Positions 9,035 to 24,428 of a DNA stretch of 27,298 nt are shown here, piece by piece. The stretch spans positions 1 to 27,298 of the forward strand of contig JBFXGD010000034.1 in NCBI GenBank assembly GCA_050178385.1, given 5' to 3'. The translations under genes and the position numbers were made by a program. Position 1 is the first letter of the stretch; every line of letters begins with the position of its first letter. This DNA comes from Calditrichaceae bacterium. Lineage in GTDB: Bacteria > Calditrichota > Calditrichia > Calditrichales > JBFXGD01. The notes beneath the pieces are model-generated. The model ran no database searches and had not been told where the DNA came from. It was given only the letters and a program-made list of their open reading frames with translations.

Positions 9035-9110
9035 CCTTTAATATTCCTGATTTTTTCAAGATTTCAGAGATGGCACAGAGTTGCGAAATCATTATGGGAA
9101 GGGACACAAG

Positions 9111-9437
9111 TTGTTTTTAGGAAAAGTAGTCGGTTCGGTTTGGGCGACAAAGAAAACAGATAACTTAAAAAACCTGCGTTTTTTGATTGTTAATCCGTTA
9201 AATCTGAAAAAAGCGCCTTTAACAGATGTGGTAGTTGTGGCGGATTTATTGGGAGCGGGAGTCGGCGAAGTGGTGATTTGCGCTTACGGCCACGCGGCGC
9301 GGCAGGCGATTTACCCGGATGATCCTTCATCTGTTAGTATTGAAGCGGCTGTGGTGGCTATTGTTGACCGGGTTGATCTGGATTCGGCATTAATGGATCC
9401 AAAACTGAGATCTCTCGATGATTCAAAAAGTAAATAA
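9111..9437 (+). CDS. EutN/CcmL family bacterial microcompartment vertex (BMC-P) protein
   Basis: MFLGKVVGSVWATKK...L..LRFLIV...VVADLLGAGVGEVV...G.AAR...EAAVVAIVD matches the EutN/CcmL pattern; TTG start at 9111 preceded by GGGAAGGGA. Confidence 0.93.
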   Translation: MFLGKVVGSVWATKKTDNLKNLRFLIVNPLNLKKAPLTDVVVVADLLGAGVGEVVICAYGHAARQAIYPDDPSSVSIEAAVVAIVDRVDLDSALMDPKLRSLDDSKSK

Positions 9438-9478: not shown

Positions 9479-9934
9479 ATGGCAAATATAACTGAAAGCG
9501 ATATCCGTAAACTTGCTGAAGAAGCGCTTAGACAGCTGGGCAAATCCGCAAATCCGGAAGTCATTGAAACGGTTGTTAAAAATGCTGTTAGTAAGATCGA
9601 TAAAGAGAGTAATGTAACTCAGGATTTGAAAACTCTGCAGAAAGAAAGCGTCAAAAGATCAAAAAACCGGATAATCATTACCGCGTTCGGTAAAGACCGG
9701 CCCGGAATTCTTGCAGGATTGACAGGCATTTTAGCGAAGCATACCTGTAATATTGTTGATTTATCACAAAAAATTCTACAGGAATTTTTTACGGTAATGC
9801 TTCTGGTGGATATCTCTGAGTGTGATGCTGATTTTGAGTTTATAAAATCAGAGATGATCCGTACAGGAGAAGAGTTTGATCTAAAAGTAATCGTCCAGCA
9901 CGAAGAAATTTTTAATGCAATGCACAGGGTATAG
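9479..9934 (+). CDS. ACT domain protein (UPF0237/GcvR-like ACT) with ~60 aa N-terminal extension
   Basis: IIITAFGKDRPGILA...NIVDLSQKILQEFFTV...VQHEEIFNAMHRV is typical of the ACT partner of DUF711 proteins; extra N-terminal amphipathic helices. Confidence 0.9.
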   Translation: MANITESDIRKLAEEALRQLGKSANPEVIETVVKNAVSKIDKESNVTQDLKTLQKESVKRSKNRIIITAFGKDRPGILAGLTGILAKHTCNIVDLSQKILQEFFTVMLLVDISECDADFEFIKSEMIRTGEEFDLKVIVQHEEIFNAMHRV

Positions 9935-9937
9935 ATT

Positions 9938-11299
9938 ATGCCGATAGCAATGGAAGAAATATTAGAAACCATACGAATGACAGAGGTTGAGCATTTTGAT
10001 ATCCGTACGGTGACAATGGGTATAAATTTAAAAGATTGTACCAGCGATAATCTCGGTCAGTTGAAAAGTAATATCTATGAAAAATTAATGCGGGTCGCGG
10101 CGGAGCATGTAAAAACAGCCCAAAAAATTGAATCTGAATATGGAATTTCTATCGCCAACAAAAGAATATCTGTCACACCGGTGGCTATTGTCGCTGACGG
10201 ATATTTTATGGAGGATTTCATAGAGATCGCGGAAGTACTTGATAAAGCCGCCGATGAACTGGGGGTTGATTATCTGGGGGGATTCTCCGCATTGGTTCAG
10301 AAAGGATTTTCGAAAGGCGATCTGAATCTGATCCACGCCATTCCCGAAGCGCTTTCGCGGACAAAACATGTCTGCTCCTCGGTGAATGTGGCGACAACAA
10401 AAGCCGGTATCAATATGGATGCCGTGAGCCTGATGGGAAAGATTATAAAACAAACGGCTGAAAATACCGCTGACCGTCAGGGCATTGGCTGCGCAAAGCT
10501 TGTCGTGTTTGCAAACGCGCCTGAAGATAACCCTTTTATTGCGGGGGCTTTTCACGGAGTGAGCGAGCCTGATGTGGTTGTAAATGTCGGCATCAGCGGT
10601 CCGGGCGTTATTTTGAGAGCGGTCAAAGAAGCGCCGGATCTGGATTTTGCTTCACTCGGAGAGCGGATTCGCAGAATGGCATTCAAGATTACGCGGGCCG
10701 GTGAGTTTGTGGGCAGAAAAGTAGCGTCGATGCAGAATATTCCATTTGGTATCGTTGATATCTCTCTCGCGCCGACACCCATGCCGGGCGACAGTGTCGC
10801 GGATATTTTAAAAGCGATGGGGCTCGAAGATGTGGGTGCCACGGGAACAACTGCTGCTCTCGCGCTGCTGAATGACTCAGTCAAGCGCGGTGGATTGATG
10901 GCATCTTCTTATGTGGGAGGAATGAGCGGAGCTTTTATCCCTGTCTCCGAAGACGAAGGTATGATCAAAGCCGCACAAAAGGGTCATATTACTATCGAAA
11001 AGCTGGAGGCAATGACAAGCGTATGCAGTGTCGGCATCGATATGGTAGCTATTCCCGGAAATACTTCCGCGGCGACGATTGCCGGAATTATCGCGGATGA
11101 ATGCGCTATCGGAATGGTAAATAACAAGACGACGGCTGTCAGGGTAATTCCTGTTCCCGGTATGGATGTGGGGCAGGCCGCCGATTATGGAGGCCTTCTC
11201 GGAATCGCTCCGATTATGCCGGTCTCCAAACTCGATAATTCGAAATTTATTGGCCGCGGCGGACGTATTCCAGCGCCTTCAAAAGGTATCAATAATTAA
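9938..11299 (+). CDS. DUF711 / UPF0210 'PFL family' protein
   Basis: [73 protein letters not shown]; usual pairing with the upstream ACT gene. Confidence 0.93.
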
Positions 11300-11313: not shown

Positions 11314-12183
11314 ATGAAATTCTATAAACAGAAAATACACATCGCCATGACGCAAATAAACACCGTGCTTGGCGATATAGATAAAAATCTCGAAAAGCAC
11401 TATTTCGCCATTAATCAGGCAATTGAAGGGAAAAATGATATCATTGTCTTCCCGGAATTGTCTTTAACGGGTTACTCCCTGAAGGATGCTGTTTACGATG
11501 TGGCGGTTACGGCAGATGACACGAAATTTAACGAACTTAAGAAACTCAGTAAGCATATATCAATCATGGCCGGGATGGTTGAATTAAATGACCGCTATGA
11601 AATCTACAATACGGCGCTGTTTTTTGAAAACGGAGAACTGCTGACACGGCACCGAAAAGTGTATCTCCCCACATACGGTGTTTTTGAGGAAGAAAGATAT
11701 TTCAGTTCGGGAAACCGTTTTAGGGCTTTTAATTCAAAATTTGGCCGGTTTGGTCTGATGATTTGTGAGGATATCTGGCACCCGACATCGGGAGTTATCC
11801 TCGCGCAGGACGGGGCATCGGTGTTACTGGTAAGTTCCGCCGCGCTCACGCGGGGAATAGATGAAGACCCCAAACCTGAGAATGTAAGAACCTGGGAGAC
11901 GCTACTGCAGGCGCTCGCGATAACGAGTACATCTTATGTTGTGTTCGCCAACAGGGTCGGGGTGGAAGACGGCCTTGTGTTTTGGGGCGGTTCAGCGGTT
12001 ATCGCGCCGGATGGTAATATGATCACCCGCGCGCCATTCTTTAAAGAAGAAATGATAACGACGGAACTCAATCTGCTAAAACTTAAACACGCGCGATTGA
12101 ATACTACTCTTCTGAGTGATGAGAAATTACCGGTACTGATTGATGAATTTTCCAGGATTTATGAAAAAAATAAAGAATATTGA
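11314..12183 (+). CDS. Carbon-nitrogen hydrolase (nitrilase superfamily), resembling the NAD synthetase glutaminase domain
   Basis: Glu-Lys-Cys triad in FPELSLTGY, HRKVYLPTYGVFEEERYF and ICEDIW; NRVG.EDG..FWGGS. Confidence 0.88.
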   Translation: MKFYKQKIHIAMTQINTVLGDIDKNLEKHYFAINQAIEGKNDIIVFPELSLTGYSLKDAVYDVAVTADDTKFNELKKLSKHISIMAGMVELNDRYEIYNTALFFENGELLTRHRKVYLPTYGVFEEERYFSSGNRFRAFNSKFGRFGLMICEDIWHPTSGVILAQDGASVLLVSSAALTRGIDEDPKPENVRTWETLLQALAITSTSYVVFANRVGVEDGLVFWGGSAVIAPDGNMITRAPFFKEEMITTELNLLKLKHARLNTTLLSDEKLPVLIDEFSRIYEKNKEY

Positions 12184-18217: not shown

Positions 18218-18230
18218 CTTGGAGGTTTAT

Positions 18231-18608
18231 ATGAGTATCCCGGGTGAATTGAAGTACACCAAAGACCATGAATGGACAAAAACAGATGGTGACATCGTTG
18301 TTGTTGGAATTACAGATTACGCACAGGGTGAATTAGGCGATGTTGTATTTGTTGAACTGCCCGAAGTCGGTGATAAAGTTAATATGGGTGACAGCTTTGG
18401 CACTATTGAAGCTGTAAAAGCCGTTGCAGATCTGTTTAGTCCGGTTTCAGGGGAAATCGTTGAAATAAATGGCGCCCTGGAAGATGAGCCGGAGACTGTA
18501 AATAAAGATCCTTATGGTGAAGGCTGGATGGTCAAAATTAAAATATCAGATATTTCTGAACTAAAAAATCTGATGGATGCGGCAGCTTATGCGGAGCATA
18601 TTGGCTGA
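18231..18608 (+). CDS. gcvH: Glycine cleavage system H protein
   Basis: YTKDHEW, GITDYAQGELGD, EAVKAV lipoyl Lys, N.DPYGEGW; SD GGAGG before ATG 18231. Confidence 0.98.
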   Translation: MSIPGELKYTKDHEWTKTDGDIVVVGITDYAQGELGDVVFVELPEVGDKVNMGDSFGTIEAVKAVADLFSPVSGEIVEINGALEDEPETVNKDPYGEGWMVKIKISDISELKNLMDAAAYAEHIG

Positions 18609-18617
18609 TATCTTTAT

Positions 18618-18655
18618 AAAAAGCCCGTGGATAAATCAATCACGGGTTTTTTTTT
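18618..18655 (+). terminator. Rho-independent terminator after gcvH
   Basis: AAAAAGCCCGTG...CACGGGTTTTTTTTT. Confidence 0.88.
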
Positions 18656-18718
18656 CTTTTCTTTCCTGATGTTAACAATTCTTTAAATGTCCCACCGCTC
18701 AATCTTTGGTAAAATCCT

Positions 18719-18747
18719 TTGTTAATTGATGCTTAATATATTAAATT
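18719..18747 (+). promoter_or_regulatory. Putative sigma70 promoter of the gcvPA operon
   Basis: TTGTTA-17 nt-TAAATT in an AT-rich intergenic region; same -10 as the pdxS candidate promoter. Confidence 0.4.
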
Positions 18748-18866
18748 AAGGATTAAACCAGAATGCAATCATAAATTCAAAATTGATTCATAATCTGGGG
18801 GATATTCAGAGATTTTGAATCAGTTTTTATATATTCACTTTCTTAAATTAAATAAAGGTAACACGC

Positions 18867-20195
18867 ATGGCATATCTTTCTAATTCTGAAGCCGATATCA
18901 GGGAGATGCTTGAAGTGATCGGTCTTGATAATATCGAGGAGTTATTATCGAATATTCCCGAAGATCTGCGCTTCAAAGGCACTTTTCAGATGCCGGAAGC
19001 TGAATCTGAACTCGGTATCAGCAGAATTGTACAGCAGTTAGCGGAAAAGAACAAGACTTATGTCTCTTTTCTTGGCGGTGGCGCTTATGACCATTATATA
19101 CCGTCAATCATTGATGCTCTCACATCAAGATCAGAATTTTATACATCTTATACTCCATATCAGCCTGAAGTCAGCCAGGGGAATCTACAGGCCATGTATG
19201 AGTTTCAGTCAATGATCTGCGAACTGACTGAAATGGATGTAACAAACGCGTCCATGTATGAAGCGGGTTCCGCTCTAGCGGAAGCTGTCCTGGTTGCTGC
19301 CGGTCATACCGGCAAAAATAAAATACTTGTACCAGCCACTCTCAACAGCAGATATAAACGCATTATTGAAACCTATATCAATAACACTGAGATCGAACTG
19401 ACGGAGATACCGGAAAAGGATCTGGCAATAGACCATTCCGCCTTGAAAACTCTGATCGACGACCAAACTGCCGCTGTCATTGTCCAGCATCCTAATTATT
19501 TCGGATTTTTTGAGGATGTTGCCGCGGTAAAAAATGCTGCGGCCGGCAGGGATTGCCTGGTTATTCAGGTCTATGACCCCATTTCTTTGGGATTATTAAA
19601 AACACCCGGGGCGTTTGGGGTCGATATCGCCATCGCCGAAGGGCAGTCACTGGGGAACGGGCAGAACTATGGCGGACCTTATCTGGGTTTGTTCTCTGTT
19701 AATAAAAGCCTGATTCGTAAAATTCCGGGAAGATTGTCCGGCGTTACGAAAGATGAGGACGGGAAAAGGGGCTTTGTGCTTACCTTACAAACACGGGAGC
19801 AGCACATCCGCAGAGAAAAAGCCACATCGAATATCTGTACCAATTCAGGATTAATGGCGCTTACGGCAGGGATTTATATGGCAACTCTCGGGAAAAAGGG
19901 AATAAAAGATGTAGCCGGCTTGTGTTTACAAAAAGCGCATTATCTGGCGGATAAATTGACGGCTATCCCGGGAATATCCATGGCTTCGAAGTCTCCGTTC
20001 TTCAAAGAATTTACTCTCAATTTGCCGGTCAAGGCTGAAGATGTGATTCAGGCAGCGATGAAGGAAGGTATTTTTGCGGGAATTGATTTGAAAAAGACGG
20101 GTCACACGAACAAAATATTAATCGCGGTTACGGAGCAGCGAACCAGAGATGAACTGGATAAATACATTCAATTTTATAAAAAATATTTGATGTAA
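18867..20195 (+). CDS. gcvPA: Glycine dehydrogenase (decarboxylating) subunit 1
   Basis: FLGGGAYDH, SYTPYQPEVSQG, NASMYE, GGPYLG, LQTREQHIRREKATSNICTN. Confidence 0.98.
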   Translation: MAYLSNSEADIREMLEVIGLDNIEELLSNIPEDLRFKGTFQMPEAESELGISRIVQQLAEKNKTYVSFLGGGAYDHYIPSIIDALTSRSEFYTSYTPYQPEVSQGNLQAMYEFQSMICELTEMDVTNASMYEAGSALAEAVLVAAGHTGKNKILVPATLNSRYKRIIETYINNTEIELTEIPEKDLAIDHSALKTLIDDQTAAVIVQHPNYFGFFEDVAAVKNAAAGRDCLVIQVYDPISLGLLKTPGAFGVDIAIAEGQSLGNGQNYGGPYLGLFSVNKSLIRKIPGRLSGVTKDEDGKRGFVLTLQTREQHIRREKATSNICTNSGLMALTAGIYMATLGKKGIKDVAGLCLQKAHYLADKLTAIPGISMASKSPFFKEFTLNLPVKAEDVIQAAMKEGIFAGIDLKKTGHTNKILIAVTEQRTRDELDKYIQFYKKYLM

Positions 20196-20207
20196 GGGAT
20201 CACTTTT

Positions 20208-21242
20208 ATGCCCAGAGTTCTTGTCGCTGACGATAACGAGGATATGCTTGATACCCTTGAGCGGATCTTCAAATTTTACCAATTTGATGTGGAAAAGGCA
20301 TCCAACGGTGTTGAAGCGATAGAAATCGCGCAAAACAGCAGGCCGGATCTGATTCTGCTCGATGGAATGATGCCGGTAATGGACGGGTTCGAGGCCTGTA
20401 AAGTGTTAAAAAGCAGTATGAATACAAAGGATATTCCCATAGTATTCCTTACCGCGAATTATACCGATGTTAAAGATCGGATTACCGGTTTTGAACTGGG
20501 CGCGGACGATTATTTACTGAAACCGTTTAACTCCAAGGAACTTGTGGCACGGGTAAACGCGATCCTGAACCGGAATAAAATGTTGTATGTGCTGAGAAGC
20601 GAGAACGAACAACTGACTTACAATAATAAAATTATGCAGAAAGAACTTGAGTCGTTTCTTAGCCGGTCAAAACAGATAGATAAACACACATTGATTGATC
20701 CACTGACAGGGCTTTATACTTTTTCATTTTTTGAAAGGCGCCTGAAAGAAGAATTTTTAAGGGCCATCCGTTATAAAACTGCCATTTCCCTGGTTATAGT
20801 GAGTATTAACAATGTAAAGAAAATGAATGAAACGCTCGGCTATCAGGTGAGCAATTATATCAGAATAAAAATGGCAAATCTGATCTTAAACAAAACCAGG
20901 GCGGTAGATATACTTTCACAAAATACAGAGGAATATTTTTATATCATACTTCCTCAAACCGATGATCAGGGAGGCTTTTTGGAAGCCGAACGGCTTCGGG
21001 AGACTCTTGCCGGAGCCTGTTATTTTGATGACGAGTTTATCGCTACCGTGTCCAATTCTAAAAAGAAGATTGTGGAGCAAAGTAAGATAACAGTGAATCT
21101 CGGGGTCGCCTCATTTCCGATGAACAATATAGAAGTCGCGGATGAGAACGATCTGCTAAACAAAGCAAAAGAAGCATTAGGGGCATCTAAAGAGATTGGT
21201 TTAAATAAGACGGTTTCTTATTGGGAGCTAATTCAGGCTTAG
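20208..21242 (+). CDS. Response regulator with degenerate GGDEF domain retaining the RxxD I-site
   Basis: Intact REC (VADDNED, LLDGMMP, FLTA, LKPF); coiled coil; DPLTGLY; IVSINNVK in place of DIDxFK; RAVDILSQNTEEYF in place of RxxDxxxRxGGEEF. Confidence 0.9.
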   Translation: MPRVLVADDNEDMLDTLERIFKFYQFDVEKASNGVEAIEIAQNSRPDLILLDGMMPVMDGFEACKVLKSSMNTKDIPIVFLTANYTDVKDRITGFELGADDYLLKPFNSKELVARVNAILNRNKMLYVLRSENEQLTYNNKIMQKELESFLSRSKQIDKHTLIDPLTGLYTFSFFERRLKEEFLRAIRYKTAISLVIVSINNVKKMNETLGYQVSNYIRIKMANLILNKTRAVDILSQNTEEYFYIILPQTDDQGGFLEAERLRETLAGACYFDDEFIATVSNSKKKIVEQSKITVNLGVASFPMNNIEVADENDLLNKAKEALGASKEIGLNKTVSYWELIQA

Positions 21243-21263
21243 ATGCCTTCAGGGAGATAAAGT

Positions 21264-22715
21264 ATGTATACAAAATTGATTTTTGAGATGAGTAAAGAAG
21301 GTCGGGTAGGGCACGTATTGCCGAAAGTGGATGTTCCCGAAACGAAAACCGATGATCTTATACCAAAGAATTATTTACGCGAAAAACCGGCCGAATTGCC
21401 CCAGGTTGCGGAAAATGAGATTGTCAGGCACTATATTGGTCTTTCAAATTTAAATCACCATGTGGATAAGGCTTTTTATCCTCTTGGTTCATGCACGATG
21501 AAATACAACCCTAAAATCAACGAAAAATTAGCGGGTCTCTCCGGATTCAGAAACTTACACCCGGATCAGCCGAATGAAGCGGTTCAGGGCGGCCTGAAGC
21601 TGCTCTTTGAACTTCAGGAATATTTGATGGAATTGACCGGGTTCAGCGGGATTACGCTGCAGCCGGCTGCCGGTGCGCAAGGTGAATTGGTCGGTCTTCT
21701 TCTGATGAAGAAATATCATCAAATGAAAAAAAGAAACCGGAAGACAATTCTTGTACCGGATTCCGCTCACGGAACAAATCCCGCGAGCGCGAGAATTGCG
21801 GGATTCAAAATTAAAACGATACGCTCCACCGCGCAGGGTGTGGTGGATCTTGCCGATCTGAAAGCCAACCTGAATGATGATGTGGCCGGTATAATGCTGA
21901 CAAATCCGAGCACCCTTGGTATTTTTGAACATCAAATTCGCGAGATCAGGGAAATGCTTGATTCAATTGACGCCCTTATGTATATGGATGGGGCCAATAT
22001 GAACGCGTTGTTCGGAATTGTCAGACCTGCCGACCTTGGTTTTGATGTTATGCATCTTAATTTGCATAAAAGTTTTTCGACCCCTCACGGCGGAGGAGGC
22101 CCTGGAACCGGTCCCGTAGCCGTTAACGAGAAATTGAAGGCTTTTCTGCCTGTTCCTGTTGTGGATAAAAAAGGTGAAACCTACTTTCTTAATGAAGAAC
22201 TGCCGGATTCAATAGGCAGCGTACACAGTTATTTTGGAAATTTTGCGCTTCTGGTTCGCGCTTATGTTTATATCCGGATGATTGGAAGGCATGGATTCAG
22301 AAAAGTATCGGATCACGCGATAGTGAATGCAAATTATCTCCGAAAAAGACTCTCGGGGAATTTTGAGCTTGGGTACTCCGCGCCGACTATGCATGAATTT
22401 GTACTCTCCGCGGAAAAACAGAAGAAAAGAGGGGCAAAAGCTCTTGATATCGCGAAGAGGCTTCTGGATTATGGGATACATCCACCGACAGTATATTTTC
22501 CCCTGATTGTTAAAGAAGCGCTGATGATTGAACCAACCGAAACAGAGAGCAAGGAGATGCTCGATCATTTTGTTGATGTTATGCTGACCATTGATAAGGA
22601 AATTGATGAAACGCCGGAATTACTTTTAGATGCGCCGCATATTACGCCGGTCAGGAGACTTGATGAAGCCGGCGCCGCGCGTAATTTAGATATTAATTAC
22701 TTTAAAAAGAGCTAA
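21264..22715 (+). CDS. gcvPB: Glycine dehydrogenase (decarboxylating) subunit 2
   Basis: PLGSCTMKYNP, QPAAGAQGE, SAHGTNPAS, HLNLHKSFSTPHGGGGPG (PLP Lys), MIEPTETES. Confidence 0.98.
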   Translation: MYTKLIFEMSKEGRVGHVLPKVDVPETKTDDLIPKNYLREKPAELPQVAENEIVRHYIGLSNLNHHVDKAFYPLGSCTMKYNPKINEKLAGLSGFRNLHPDQPNEAVQGGLKLLFELQEYLMELTGFSGITLQPAAGAQGELVGLLLMKKYHQMKKRNRKTILVPDSAHGTNPASARIAGFKIKTIRSTAQGVVDLADLKANLNDDVAGIMLTNPSTLGIFEHQIREIREMLDSIDALMYMDGANMNALFGIVRPADLGFDVMHLNLHKSFSTPHGGGGPGTGPVAVNEKLKAFLPVPVVDKKGETYFLNEELPDSIGSVHSYFGNFALLVRAYVYIRMIGRHGFRKVSDHAIVNANYLRKRLSGNFELGYSAPTMHEFVLSAEKQKKRGAKALDIAKRLLDYGIHPPTVYFPLIVKEALMIEPTETESKEMLDHFVDVMLTIDKEIDETPELLLDAPHITPVRRLDEAGAARNLDINYFKKS

Positions 22716-23492: not shown

Positions 23493-24428
23493 ATGTATAA
23501 AATATTGATTTGTGATCCTCTGGATGAAACAGCCATGGCGAATCTTGCAGAGGCAAAAGACATAATTTATGATGCCATTTACGGGCAGTCGGAAGCTGAT
23601 CTGATTAAGAATATTCCTAAATACAACGCGGTTATTGTACGCAGCGCGACAACTATTACGGGGAAGGTGATTGATGCGGGAGAAAATCTGCGCGCGATCG
23701 GCCGGGCGGGTTCGGGGCTGGATAATATTGATACGGTCCAGGCGGCAAAAAAAGGAATAAAAGTATTTAACACACCCGGGACAAATGCTGCCGCTGTGGC
23801 AGAACTTACCGTCGGTTTACTTTTTTCTCTCGCCAGAAAAATTACTGAAGCTGATGTGAGTATGAAAAACGGGCAATGGGCGAAGAAAGAATTTACGGGT
23901 TTTGAGATAGACGGTAAAATACTGGGAATCATCGGCGGGGGTACCATCGGTAAAATGGTTGCCGTTAAAGCTTTCCGCCTTGGTATGAAAATTGTTGTTT
24001 ATAACCGGTCTGAAGTAAAAATCCCGGAAATCGAATTTGAACAGGTTTCTCTTGAAAAACTCTTAAAGCGTTCGGATTTTGTCTCTGTACATCTGCCTAA
24101 AAATCCTGAAACAGCATATTTGATAGGTGAACAGGAATTTGAAAAGATAAAGCAGGGCTCTTATCTGATTAATACATCGCGGGGTGGAATAGTGTCTGAA
24201 GCCGCCTTATTGAAAGCGCTGGATTCAGGCATACTTGCCGGAGCGGCACTGGATGTCTTTGAAAATGAACCGGGTTATGATAAAAATCTGGCCGCTCATA
24301 AGAGGGTAATTGCCTCACCGCATATCGGCGCGTCAACAACAGAAGCCCAGGAAAGAGTGGGTTTACAGATTGTGGACAAAATTTTAGGGCATTTGCGATC
24401 AAATTATATATTTATATCAGGACAATAA
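23493..24428 (+). CDS. D-2-hydroxyacid dehydrogenase, short D-3-phosphoglycerate dehydrogenase-like
   Basis: IVRSAT, GRAGSGLDNID, NTPG.N..AVAE, GIIGGGTIG, INTSRGG, ALDVFENEP, SPHIGAST.EAQ.RVG; no C-terminal ACT/ASB domains. Confidence 0.88.
   Translation: MYKILICDPLDETAMANLAEAKDIIYDAIYGQSEADLIKNIPKYNAVIVRSATTITGKVIDAGENLRAIGRAGSGLDNIDTVQAAKKGIKVFNTPGTNAAAVAELTVGLLFSLARKITEADVSMKNGQWAKKEFTGFEIDGKILGIIGGGTIGKMVAVKAFRLGMKIVVYNRSEVKIPEIEFEQVSLEKLLKRSDFVSVHLPKNPETAYLIGEQEFEKIKQGSYLINTSRGGIVSEAALLKALDSGILAGAALDVFENEPGYDKNLAAHKRVIASPHIGASTTEAQERVGLQIVDKILGHLRSNYIFISGQ

Follow-up and report, generated by a model that had tools for sequence, protein, structure and literature searches.

Encapsulation peptides (EPs) of bacterial microcompartments (BMCs) are terminal amphipathic helices of 15–20 residues joined to a polar linker, as defined in excerpts of PMC4594438. 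A module that receives such peptides is found in Salmonella EutQ, where, in the relevant passages of PMC12487888, helices H1/H2 bind the shell and helices H3/H4 (residues 62–99) bind the EPs of EutC and EutE, with a Kd of 6–8 µM for H3/H4 and EutC 1–20. According to the same passages, the substitutions L89A and V93A abolish EP binding, and Q75A weakens it.

FRAG-type microcompartments have been catalogued with almost no identifiable cargo. In the portions of Sutter 2021 (PMC8217296) covered here, FRAG3 is reported for Calditrichaeota and places DeoC next to the shell vertex protein BMC-P, and FRAG4 includes an ACT protein whose N-terminal domain is BMC-specific; these portions do not call that domain an EP, nor do they tie it to EutQ or DUF711. 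They also list an HMM for ACT that carries the labels ACI and MIC3 and catalogue the Caldithrix BMC-P Cabys_2141 as a fragmented satellite, while supplement 4, in the part covered, reports that EP-HMM searches in FRAG genomes found nothing. DUF711 (05167) had no match in seven supplements of PMC8217296; two larger supplements may bear on novelty. The term was likewise not met in the passages of PMC10690189 that were covered, and our literature search gave no paper that connects ACT or DUF711 with EPs or microcompartments.

The DUF711 family has been named GlyXL and its ACT partner GlyXS, with PDB 2HA9 named as a GlyXL (GapMind 2026, PMC13759103). From the sections of that paper considered here, the pair supports glycine synthesis, as indicated by genetics and complementation, its predicted product is glyoxylate, and no compartment is needed for its function in most organisms or when it complements E. 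coli. ACT domains are noted there as often binding amino acids. The word "microcompartment" occurs zero times in the paper.

Gene content of the window and of its genome

The window is the whole stretch of DNA that was analysed, 27,298 nucleotides from a Calditrichaceae bacterium (genome G000). The genes of the locus run in the order BMC-P, ACT, DUF711 and carbon–nitrogen hydrolase, and the features considered are as follows.

9081..9437, + strand: BMC-P (EutN/CcmL) shell vertex gene (PF03319, 81 bits)
9479..9604, + strand: two-helix N-terminal module of the ACT protein, residues 1–42 (conservation, model, hydrophobic pattern)
within 9479..9604, + strand: parts of this module, helix 1 (about residues 6–20), turn, helix 2 (about residues 26–42)
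9605..9664, + strand: linker, polar and unconserved, residues 43–62 (13% identity; pLDDT below 50)
9665..9934, + strand: ACT domain, UPF0237 type (GlyXS-like), residues 63–151 and stop (PF13740, NF001220, PDB 1ZPV)
9938..11299, + strand: DUF711/UPF0210 protein, GlyXL family (PF05167, 609 bits; NF003700, 701 bits)
11314..12183, + strand: carbon–nitrogen hydrolase (PF00795), a conserved neighbour

The Pfam match of BMC-P starts at 9114, and the true start of this gene may be near there. The DUF711 gene begins 3 bases past the ACT stop, and its product matches PDB 2HA9 over the whole length (E 6e-155). Thus, the two families and their order, ACT (PF13740) beside DUF711, are those of GlyXS/GlyXL. 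Compared by numbering alone, R23, R76, E338/E340 and R402 of the DUF711 protein are near the predicted GlyXL pocket residues R22, R75, E339 and R403 (B. breve numbering). The characterised GlyXS proteins come from organisms without a described compartment, and the activity of the present copy is a prediction from its sequence. The nearest named relatives are from Calditrichaceae, and Cabys_2140 is the source name of one homologue (P0116).

Downstream, 7–13 kb from DUF711, the window contains genes that we take to encode glycine-cleavage-like H, P1 and P2 proteins and a 2-hydroxyacid dehydrogenase-like protein (18219–22715 and 23493–24428), which may connect the locus with glycine or glyoxylate metabolism. 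Between 12180 and 23468, what are presumably response-regulator-like, kinase-like and GGDEF-like genes are interleaved with biotin carboxyl carrier, biotin carboxylase and glycine cleavage genes, and a similar order is seen in many Calditrichales loci. G000 also has a GlyA motif match. The window gave no Rfam match, and promoter and terminator scans of it were at chance level.

G000 contains 15 shell matches to PF00936 and five to PF03319; one BMC-P lies in the window and all others are on other contigs. Because it holds this single BMC-P and the main loci are elsewhere, the window locus is a satellite BMC locus in the sense of Sutter 2021. The main BMC loci of G000 are on contigs C95 and C161. 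Between them they presumably contain aldehyde dehydrogenases, a EutQ and a small EutQ-N-type protein, and C95 adds what we take to be ethanolamine ammonia-lyase-like genes. In each of the two, a ParA/MinD-like ATPase is encoded next to a BMC-H whose C-terminal tail is long. Further satellites combine BMC-P with genes that we assume to encode a nucleoside phosphorylase-like protein, a DeoC with an EP-like N-terminus and a phosphomutase-like protein (C87:6835–10833), or two BMC-P genes with a presumed phosphopentomutase-like gene (C3:40292–42020); there are satellite genes that we take to be PduS-like as well. DeoC beside BMC-P, as on C87, is the arrangement of FRAG3, and the C87 and C3 satellites point to deoxyribose catabolism, as in SPU/FRAG3.

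The N-terminal helix pair of the ACT protein

The open reading frame at 9479–9934 (+ strand) encodes the ACT protein, 151 residues long. Residues 63–151 match NF001220 (UPF0237 type, 90 positions; 103 bits against a cut-off of 74), and a profile scan places ACT_6 at residues 64–139. An earlier, sequence-only reading of this DNA had put about 60 residues ahead of the ACT domain in a 151-residue protein and had taken stand-alone UPF0237 ACT proteins to be about 90 residues long. Both estimates hold, with the ACT domain starting at residue 63–64 and short homologues of 91 (PDB 1ZPV) and 89 residues (Listeria). A comparable architecture is described for FRAG4, with a C-terminal ACT domain of about 90 residues behind an N-terminal domain found only with BMCs.

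The same reading had seen two helices at residues 4–20 and 25–40 with hydrophobic residues at i, i+3, i+4, i+7, i+8 and i+11, within the first 40 residues encoded by 9479–9598. Exactly this spacing is present at I9/L12/A13/A16/L17/L20 in helix 1 and at I29/V32/V33/A36/V37/I40 in helix 2. Among 3,195 likely genes of G000, one such helix in a strict form (polar residues only between the hydrophobic ones) is encoded by 133, and two in tandem by one, this ACT gene; the pattern was derived from the ACT protein itself, and the count measures rarity, not function. The hydrophobic moments of helix 1 (0.59) and helix 2 (0.55), which are reached by 3% and 6% of the gene N-termini of G000, respectively, compare with a mean of 0.53 for 16 reference EPs.

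The helices are conserved far better than the segment that follows them. Mean pairwise identity in 48 homologues is 62% for helix 1, 44% for helix 2, 13% for the linker (43–62) and 70% for the ACT domain, and the turn residues L20, G21 and A24 are conserved at a level of at least 90%. The tag (residues 1–42) is present in 120 of 120 homologues among the matches listed (177 found). Homologues begin at the same methionine, and a wrong start codon was considered and rejected. Residues 1–46, modelled by AlphaFold2 from 73 alignment rows, form helices at 6–20 and 26–45 (pLDDT 88.9, pTM 0.64); in the full-length model, pLDDT is about 57–66 for the tag helices and below 50 for the linker. The pTM value and the conserved turn suggest that the two helices pack as a hairpin. 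The two amphipathic helices ahead of a linker and an ACT domain are a real feature of this protein.

General searches assigned the tag to no described family. No Pfam family matched more than four of 39 N-terminal segments, a PDB sequence search with the hairpin profile gave a best E of 0.016 with none of the matches BMC-related, the best match in a structure search with the hairpin model was generic (Z 5.5), and the ESM Atlas returned no usable match for the tag. We compared the tag with the two kinds of targeting module outlined above; a tag of this sort is partly anticipated in print.

For the comparison with EPs we built our own profile from 21 Eut, Pdu and GRM peptides (enterobacterial, Listeria and Ilyobacter). 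In profile–profile alignment each tag helix scores about 22 (probability 91–92), while the controls reach at most 15.6 when shuffled and 15.1 when reversed. Like the EPs of PduD, PduE, PduP, PduL, EutC and EutE, the tag is a terminal amphipathic segment of about 15–20 residues per helix (two helices here) with a polar, poorly conserved linker, and homologues from BMC genomes carry it, whereas the short homologues met here do not. These likenesses could mean that the tag is simply two ordinary EPs in tandem, each of which would bind shell grooves or co-condense with other EPs, with avidity gained from the pair and DUF711 piggy-backing on the ACT protein. The tag fits the definition published in the excerpts of PMC4594438 by its length, its place at the terminus, its polar linker and its hydrophobic moment, helix 1 aligns, weakly, with the Salmonella PduD N-terminus (score 18.6), and a weak hit of the hairpin profile elsewhere in the phylum, described below, is an aldehyde dehydrogenase N-terminus. 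However, L20, G21, A24 and the helix spacing are conserved, unlike EP linkers; the tag sits on an ACT protein rather than on a known core enzyme; and single-sequence scores against the EP profile are weak and not significant, with helix 2 ranking 15th and helix 1 only 1,599th among 7,201 domain hits in G000. Moreover, swapping the two helices leaves the EP score at about 22, whereas it lowers the match to EutQ-type segments from 39.6 to 26.2. We therefore regard tandem EPs as an unlikely explanation, though one of appreciable weight. The profile–profile matches support the EP-like character of each helix claimed in the sequence-only reading, but in view of the conserved turn and the EutQ-type match there is probably a better description of the pair than two EPs in tandem.

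The EutQ-type set consists of 19 segments: 17 from small Calditrichales proteins, found through their N-terminal domain, and one each from the EutQ proteins of G000 and E. coli; a search for further EutQ homologues yielded two. Against this set the tag scores 39.6 (probability 96.3) over 40 columns with one gap, and 39.95 when the E. coli row is left out. Controls reach 14.4 (shuffled, maximum of 60), 16.0 (reversed) and the 26.2 of the swapped helices. Thus, the tag has two amphipathic helices in the same order and with nearly the same spacing as EutQ H3/H4. The two kinds of module are look-alikes, with a score of 20.9 between the EutQ-type and EP sets. The link to EutQ is transitive, through the Calditrichales proteins, whose profile scores 24.5 against E. 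coli H3/H4 and 23.4 against an ordinary PduD peptide; the ACT profile compared directly with E. coli EutQ gave no match (score 11.4, probability 0.3). EutQ of G000 is 38% identical to that of E. coli, without gaps across H3/H4.

Along this chain of alignments, the Salmonella residues Q75, L89 and V93 fall on Q19, V32 and A36 of the ACT protein. Q19 is glutamine in 47 of 48 homologues, and the position of V32 is always aliphatic. Position 36 is alanine in 36 of 48 and threonine in 12 of 48, and valine in 30 of 30 rows of the alignment of the short proteins; alanine or threonine where V93A abolishes binding in Salmonella counts against identical binding. The ACT protein further differs from EutQ in lacking the shell-binding H1/H2 domain (except in homologue P0230) and in having an ACT domain instead of the C-terminal cupin. 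Membership of the EutQ family was considered for the ACT protein and rejected, as it begins with the hairpin and ends in ACT.

When the hairpin profile (residues 1–44) was run over 86 genomes of the phylum, eight weak hits (E up to 0.01) ranked below the orthologues. Four lie in BMC main loci, three being the C-terminal helix pair of small EutQ-N-type proteins and one the aldehyde dehydrogenase N-terminus. The other four are non-BMC proteins, presumably one YqeY-like protein and three of a single unrelated ATPase-like family. A complex prediction of the hairpin (A2) with an aldehyde dehydrogenase N-terminus (A5) gave 0.09 against a mark of 0.32 with controls that did not fold, and carries no weight here.

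By analogy with Salmonella EutQ, we tentatively read residues 1–42 as a EutQ-H3/H4-like docking hairpin that would recruit GlyXS/GlyXL to a dispersed FRAG/SPU-like microcompartment. We prefer an EP-binding hairpin to two independent EPs, and give it a chance that approaches, and stays below, even.

The small proteins of the EutQ-type set are noteworthy in themselves. A conserved protein of about 100 residues, composed of the EutQ N-terminal domain and a helix pair without cupin, occurs in Calditrichales BMC main loci (G000:C161:6308–6610, L140, L141, L148, L221, L223, L224, L226 and L246–L254). It is likely a minimal shell–cargo linker.

Synteny and reuse of the hairpin

We collected 54 related loci, 35 grouped as Calditrichota (one of these is labelled Caldisericaceae, 57% identical and syntenic) and 19 others. 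In the 35 loci, BMC-P adjoins ACT in 33, DUF711 adjoins it in 34, and the carbon–nitrogen hydrolase is present in 30. The BMC-P and ACT genes of G048 are separated by a PduS-like gene and a BMC-domain gene. Among the 19 other loci, BMC-P adjoins ACT in one (L097) and DUF711 in three. In 19 genomes outside the phylum that have the extended ACT, the genes are present in scattered positions: BMC-P in all 19, BMC-H in 17 and DUF711 in 18.

A search of the hairpin profile against 1.84 billion representatives gave 119 hits. By a rough sorting on length and profile, 34 are fusions to ACT or degenerate ACT, 55 are short proteins and one (P0217) has the hairpin fused directly onto DUF711; the remaining 29 are long, mostly short-repeat proteins and were set aside as chance. 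In P0230, a domain that by eye resembles EutQ-N precedes the hairpin and ACT in one chain. Some of the 55 short hits are ACT fragments at contig ends, so that we counted as stand-alone the 14 genes with a stop codon in the DNA. These complete hairpin genes, of 52–84 residues, are from 14 metagenome loci (L229–L242). Thirteen lie directly upstream of the carbon–nitrogen hydrolase gene known from the window, and shell, ACT and DUF711 genes are missing from the fetched flanks of all 14. These hairpin genes look like the remnant of an operon such as the one in the window that retained the hairpin, which suggests that the hairpin has a function of its own. The stand-alone proteins include P0131, P0133 and P0143, and 19 of the 55 short hits end in tyrosine after a disordered tail.

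The hairpin is also kept on a shortened ACT protein of 133 residues (L180:3671–4072) in the single-contig genome G112, which has no DUF711 match. A hairpin found alone, on a degenerate ACT and without DUF711 points to a role that needs neither partner, such as that of a sensor. A BMC-related hairpin on a cytosolic or surface ACT protein would then sense an amino acid, as ACT domains often bind these, and tune core assembly by occupying EPs or EutQ-type hairpins, without importing an active enzyme. This explanation is improbable in our estimation: ACT and DUF711 adjoin in nearly all of the Calditrichota-labelled loci, P0217 joins the hairpin straight to DUF711, and DUF711 tracks the extended ACT, being absent from all 20 genomes tested of other orders in the phylum and present in 18 of the 19 genomes outside it.

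If the docking hairpin we favour is real, its occurrence on DUF711 and as a separate mini-protein would mark it as an adaptor of general, transferable use that binds EPs.

Co-occurrence with shell genes and a possible host compartment

Shell genes are present in every genome in which we found the tag (38 of 38 in this phylum, 16 of 16 in another phylum and 8 of 8 in Chlorobiia), although these sets overlap and the genomes are kin, which leaves few independent contrasts. Within the phylum, extended ACT is present in 38 of 86 genomes and BMC-H in 61 of 86. BMC-H accompanies the extended ACT in 36 of the 38; the other two, G011 (64% complete) and G015 (98% complete), have one and four BMC-P genes, respectively, and neither has a match to BMC-H or to a BMC-type aldehyde dehydrogenase. 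G015 is either a partial counter-example or a binning gap. Conversely, 25 of the 61 BMC-H-positive genomes have no match to the ACT alignment. In 121 Chlorobiia genomes, extended ACT is found in eight and BMC-P above the cut-off in the same eight and one more, and the tag occurs in none of the 112 shell-less genomes. In the phylum of G092 (20 genomes), BMC-P is present in all 20 and ACT in 16; each of the 16 ACT proteins has the hairpin, one of them truncated at a contig end. A record labelled Prosthecochloris (L096) differs from most of the Chlorobiia sampled in having ACT–DUF711 and three BMC-P genes without a BMC-H match; its label or bin may be off.

Thus, the expectation of the sequence-only reading that the extension would be confined to BMC genomes agrees with the survey, in which no genome was found with the extension and without shell genes. 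The reverse does not hold. Listeria NCTC7974 contains pdu and eut genes yet has an 89-residue ACT protein, so having a BMC is not sufficient for the tag. In a plasmid collection, 30 records match the protein, none of them before query residue 52, and none of the 30 covers 80% of the query. The tag probably arose once; the ACT-domain tree, with 4 of 23 branches starred and one short outgroup, is uninformative on its origin. That reading had also taken the tag as independent support for the link to the adjacent EutN gene; the two are not independent, as both are co-inherited in one clade.

Such co-inheritance would by itself account for the pattern if the hairpin were unrelated to microcompartments, for example a lineage-specific dimerisation or GlyXL-binding arm. 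Independent gains or losses are few, pairs of amphipathic helices are frequent (the best structural match is unspecific), no shell gene is near 18 of the 19 non-Calditrichota loci or the 14 stand-alone genes, and G015 has neither hexamer nor dehydrogenase matches. Against this, BMC-P adjacency is conserved in two lineages, PduS-like and BMC-domain genes lie inside the G048 locus, P0230 is a fusion with EutQ-N, the match to EutQ-type segments depends on helix order, and tag and shell genes are jointly absent from the 112 Chlorobiia genomes. We give an arm of this kind only a small probability. A link of the tag to BMCs, taken jointly over the docking hairpin, the tandem EPs and the sensor, is likely, and we hold it with considerable confidence. 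A targeting function specific to the ethanolamine locus was tried and rejected: a EutC-like match is found in G000 alone among 27 fetched BMC regions, and the tag is order-wide.

In the docking-hairpin reading, the conserved amphipathic helix pair on its flexible tether would, by analogy with Salmonella EutQ, bundle with the EPs of microcompartment core enzymes and would draw the GlyXS-like ACT protein into the enzyme core. The GlyXL-like DUF711 protein may then piggy-back on ACT in a putative ACT–DUF711 complex. Without an H1/H2 domain, the ACT protein would be expected to attach to the core and not to link the core with the shell. The host organelle is likely of the dispersed FRAG/SPU-like type that these lineages have in common, with several vertex genes and with an acylating aldehyde dehydrogenase and a DeoC whose ends are EP-like. 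We do not favour the ethanolamine locus as host; it seems to have been added in this genus. Recruitment would serve to confine glyoxylate, which is a reactive aldehyde and the product predicted for GlyXL; an aldehyde is the usual reason for encapsulation, and enclosing an aldehyde-forming step would fit metabolosome logic.

The tag thus names GlyXS/GlyXL as concrete candidate cargo. In its broadest form, the proposal would be that GlyXL/GlyXS are unrecognised aldehyde-producing cargo of "fragmented" microcompartments in Calditrichota, Chlorobi and lineages related to them, and that a mobile hairpin derived from EutQ, a receptor for EPs, recruits them. We put this forward as a speculative and, at present, rather unlikely generalisation. 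If it were true, FRAG compartments would handle glyoxylate in addition to the acetaldehyde that arises from DeoC. Should the tag be an EP receptor, the EutQ linker mechanism would extend beyond Eut, and its 42 residues could serve as an adaptor for engineered compartments.

EP-like helices differ in placement among the aldehyde dehydrogenases. They are N-terminal on those of Calditrichales, and a C-terminal EP-like helix was recognised by eye in 5 of 5 dispersed-locus genomes examined; these enzymes are candidate partners of the hairpin. Genomes with "shell-only" dispersed loci (L263–L272; G088, G092, G094, G100 and G112) contain a lone EutE-like dehydrogenase with such a C-terminal helix. The same genomes contain DeoC, in several with an N-terminal extension, and these proteins are overlooked cargo candidates.
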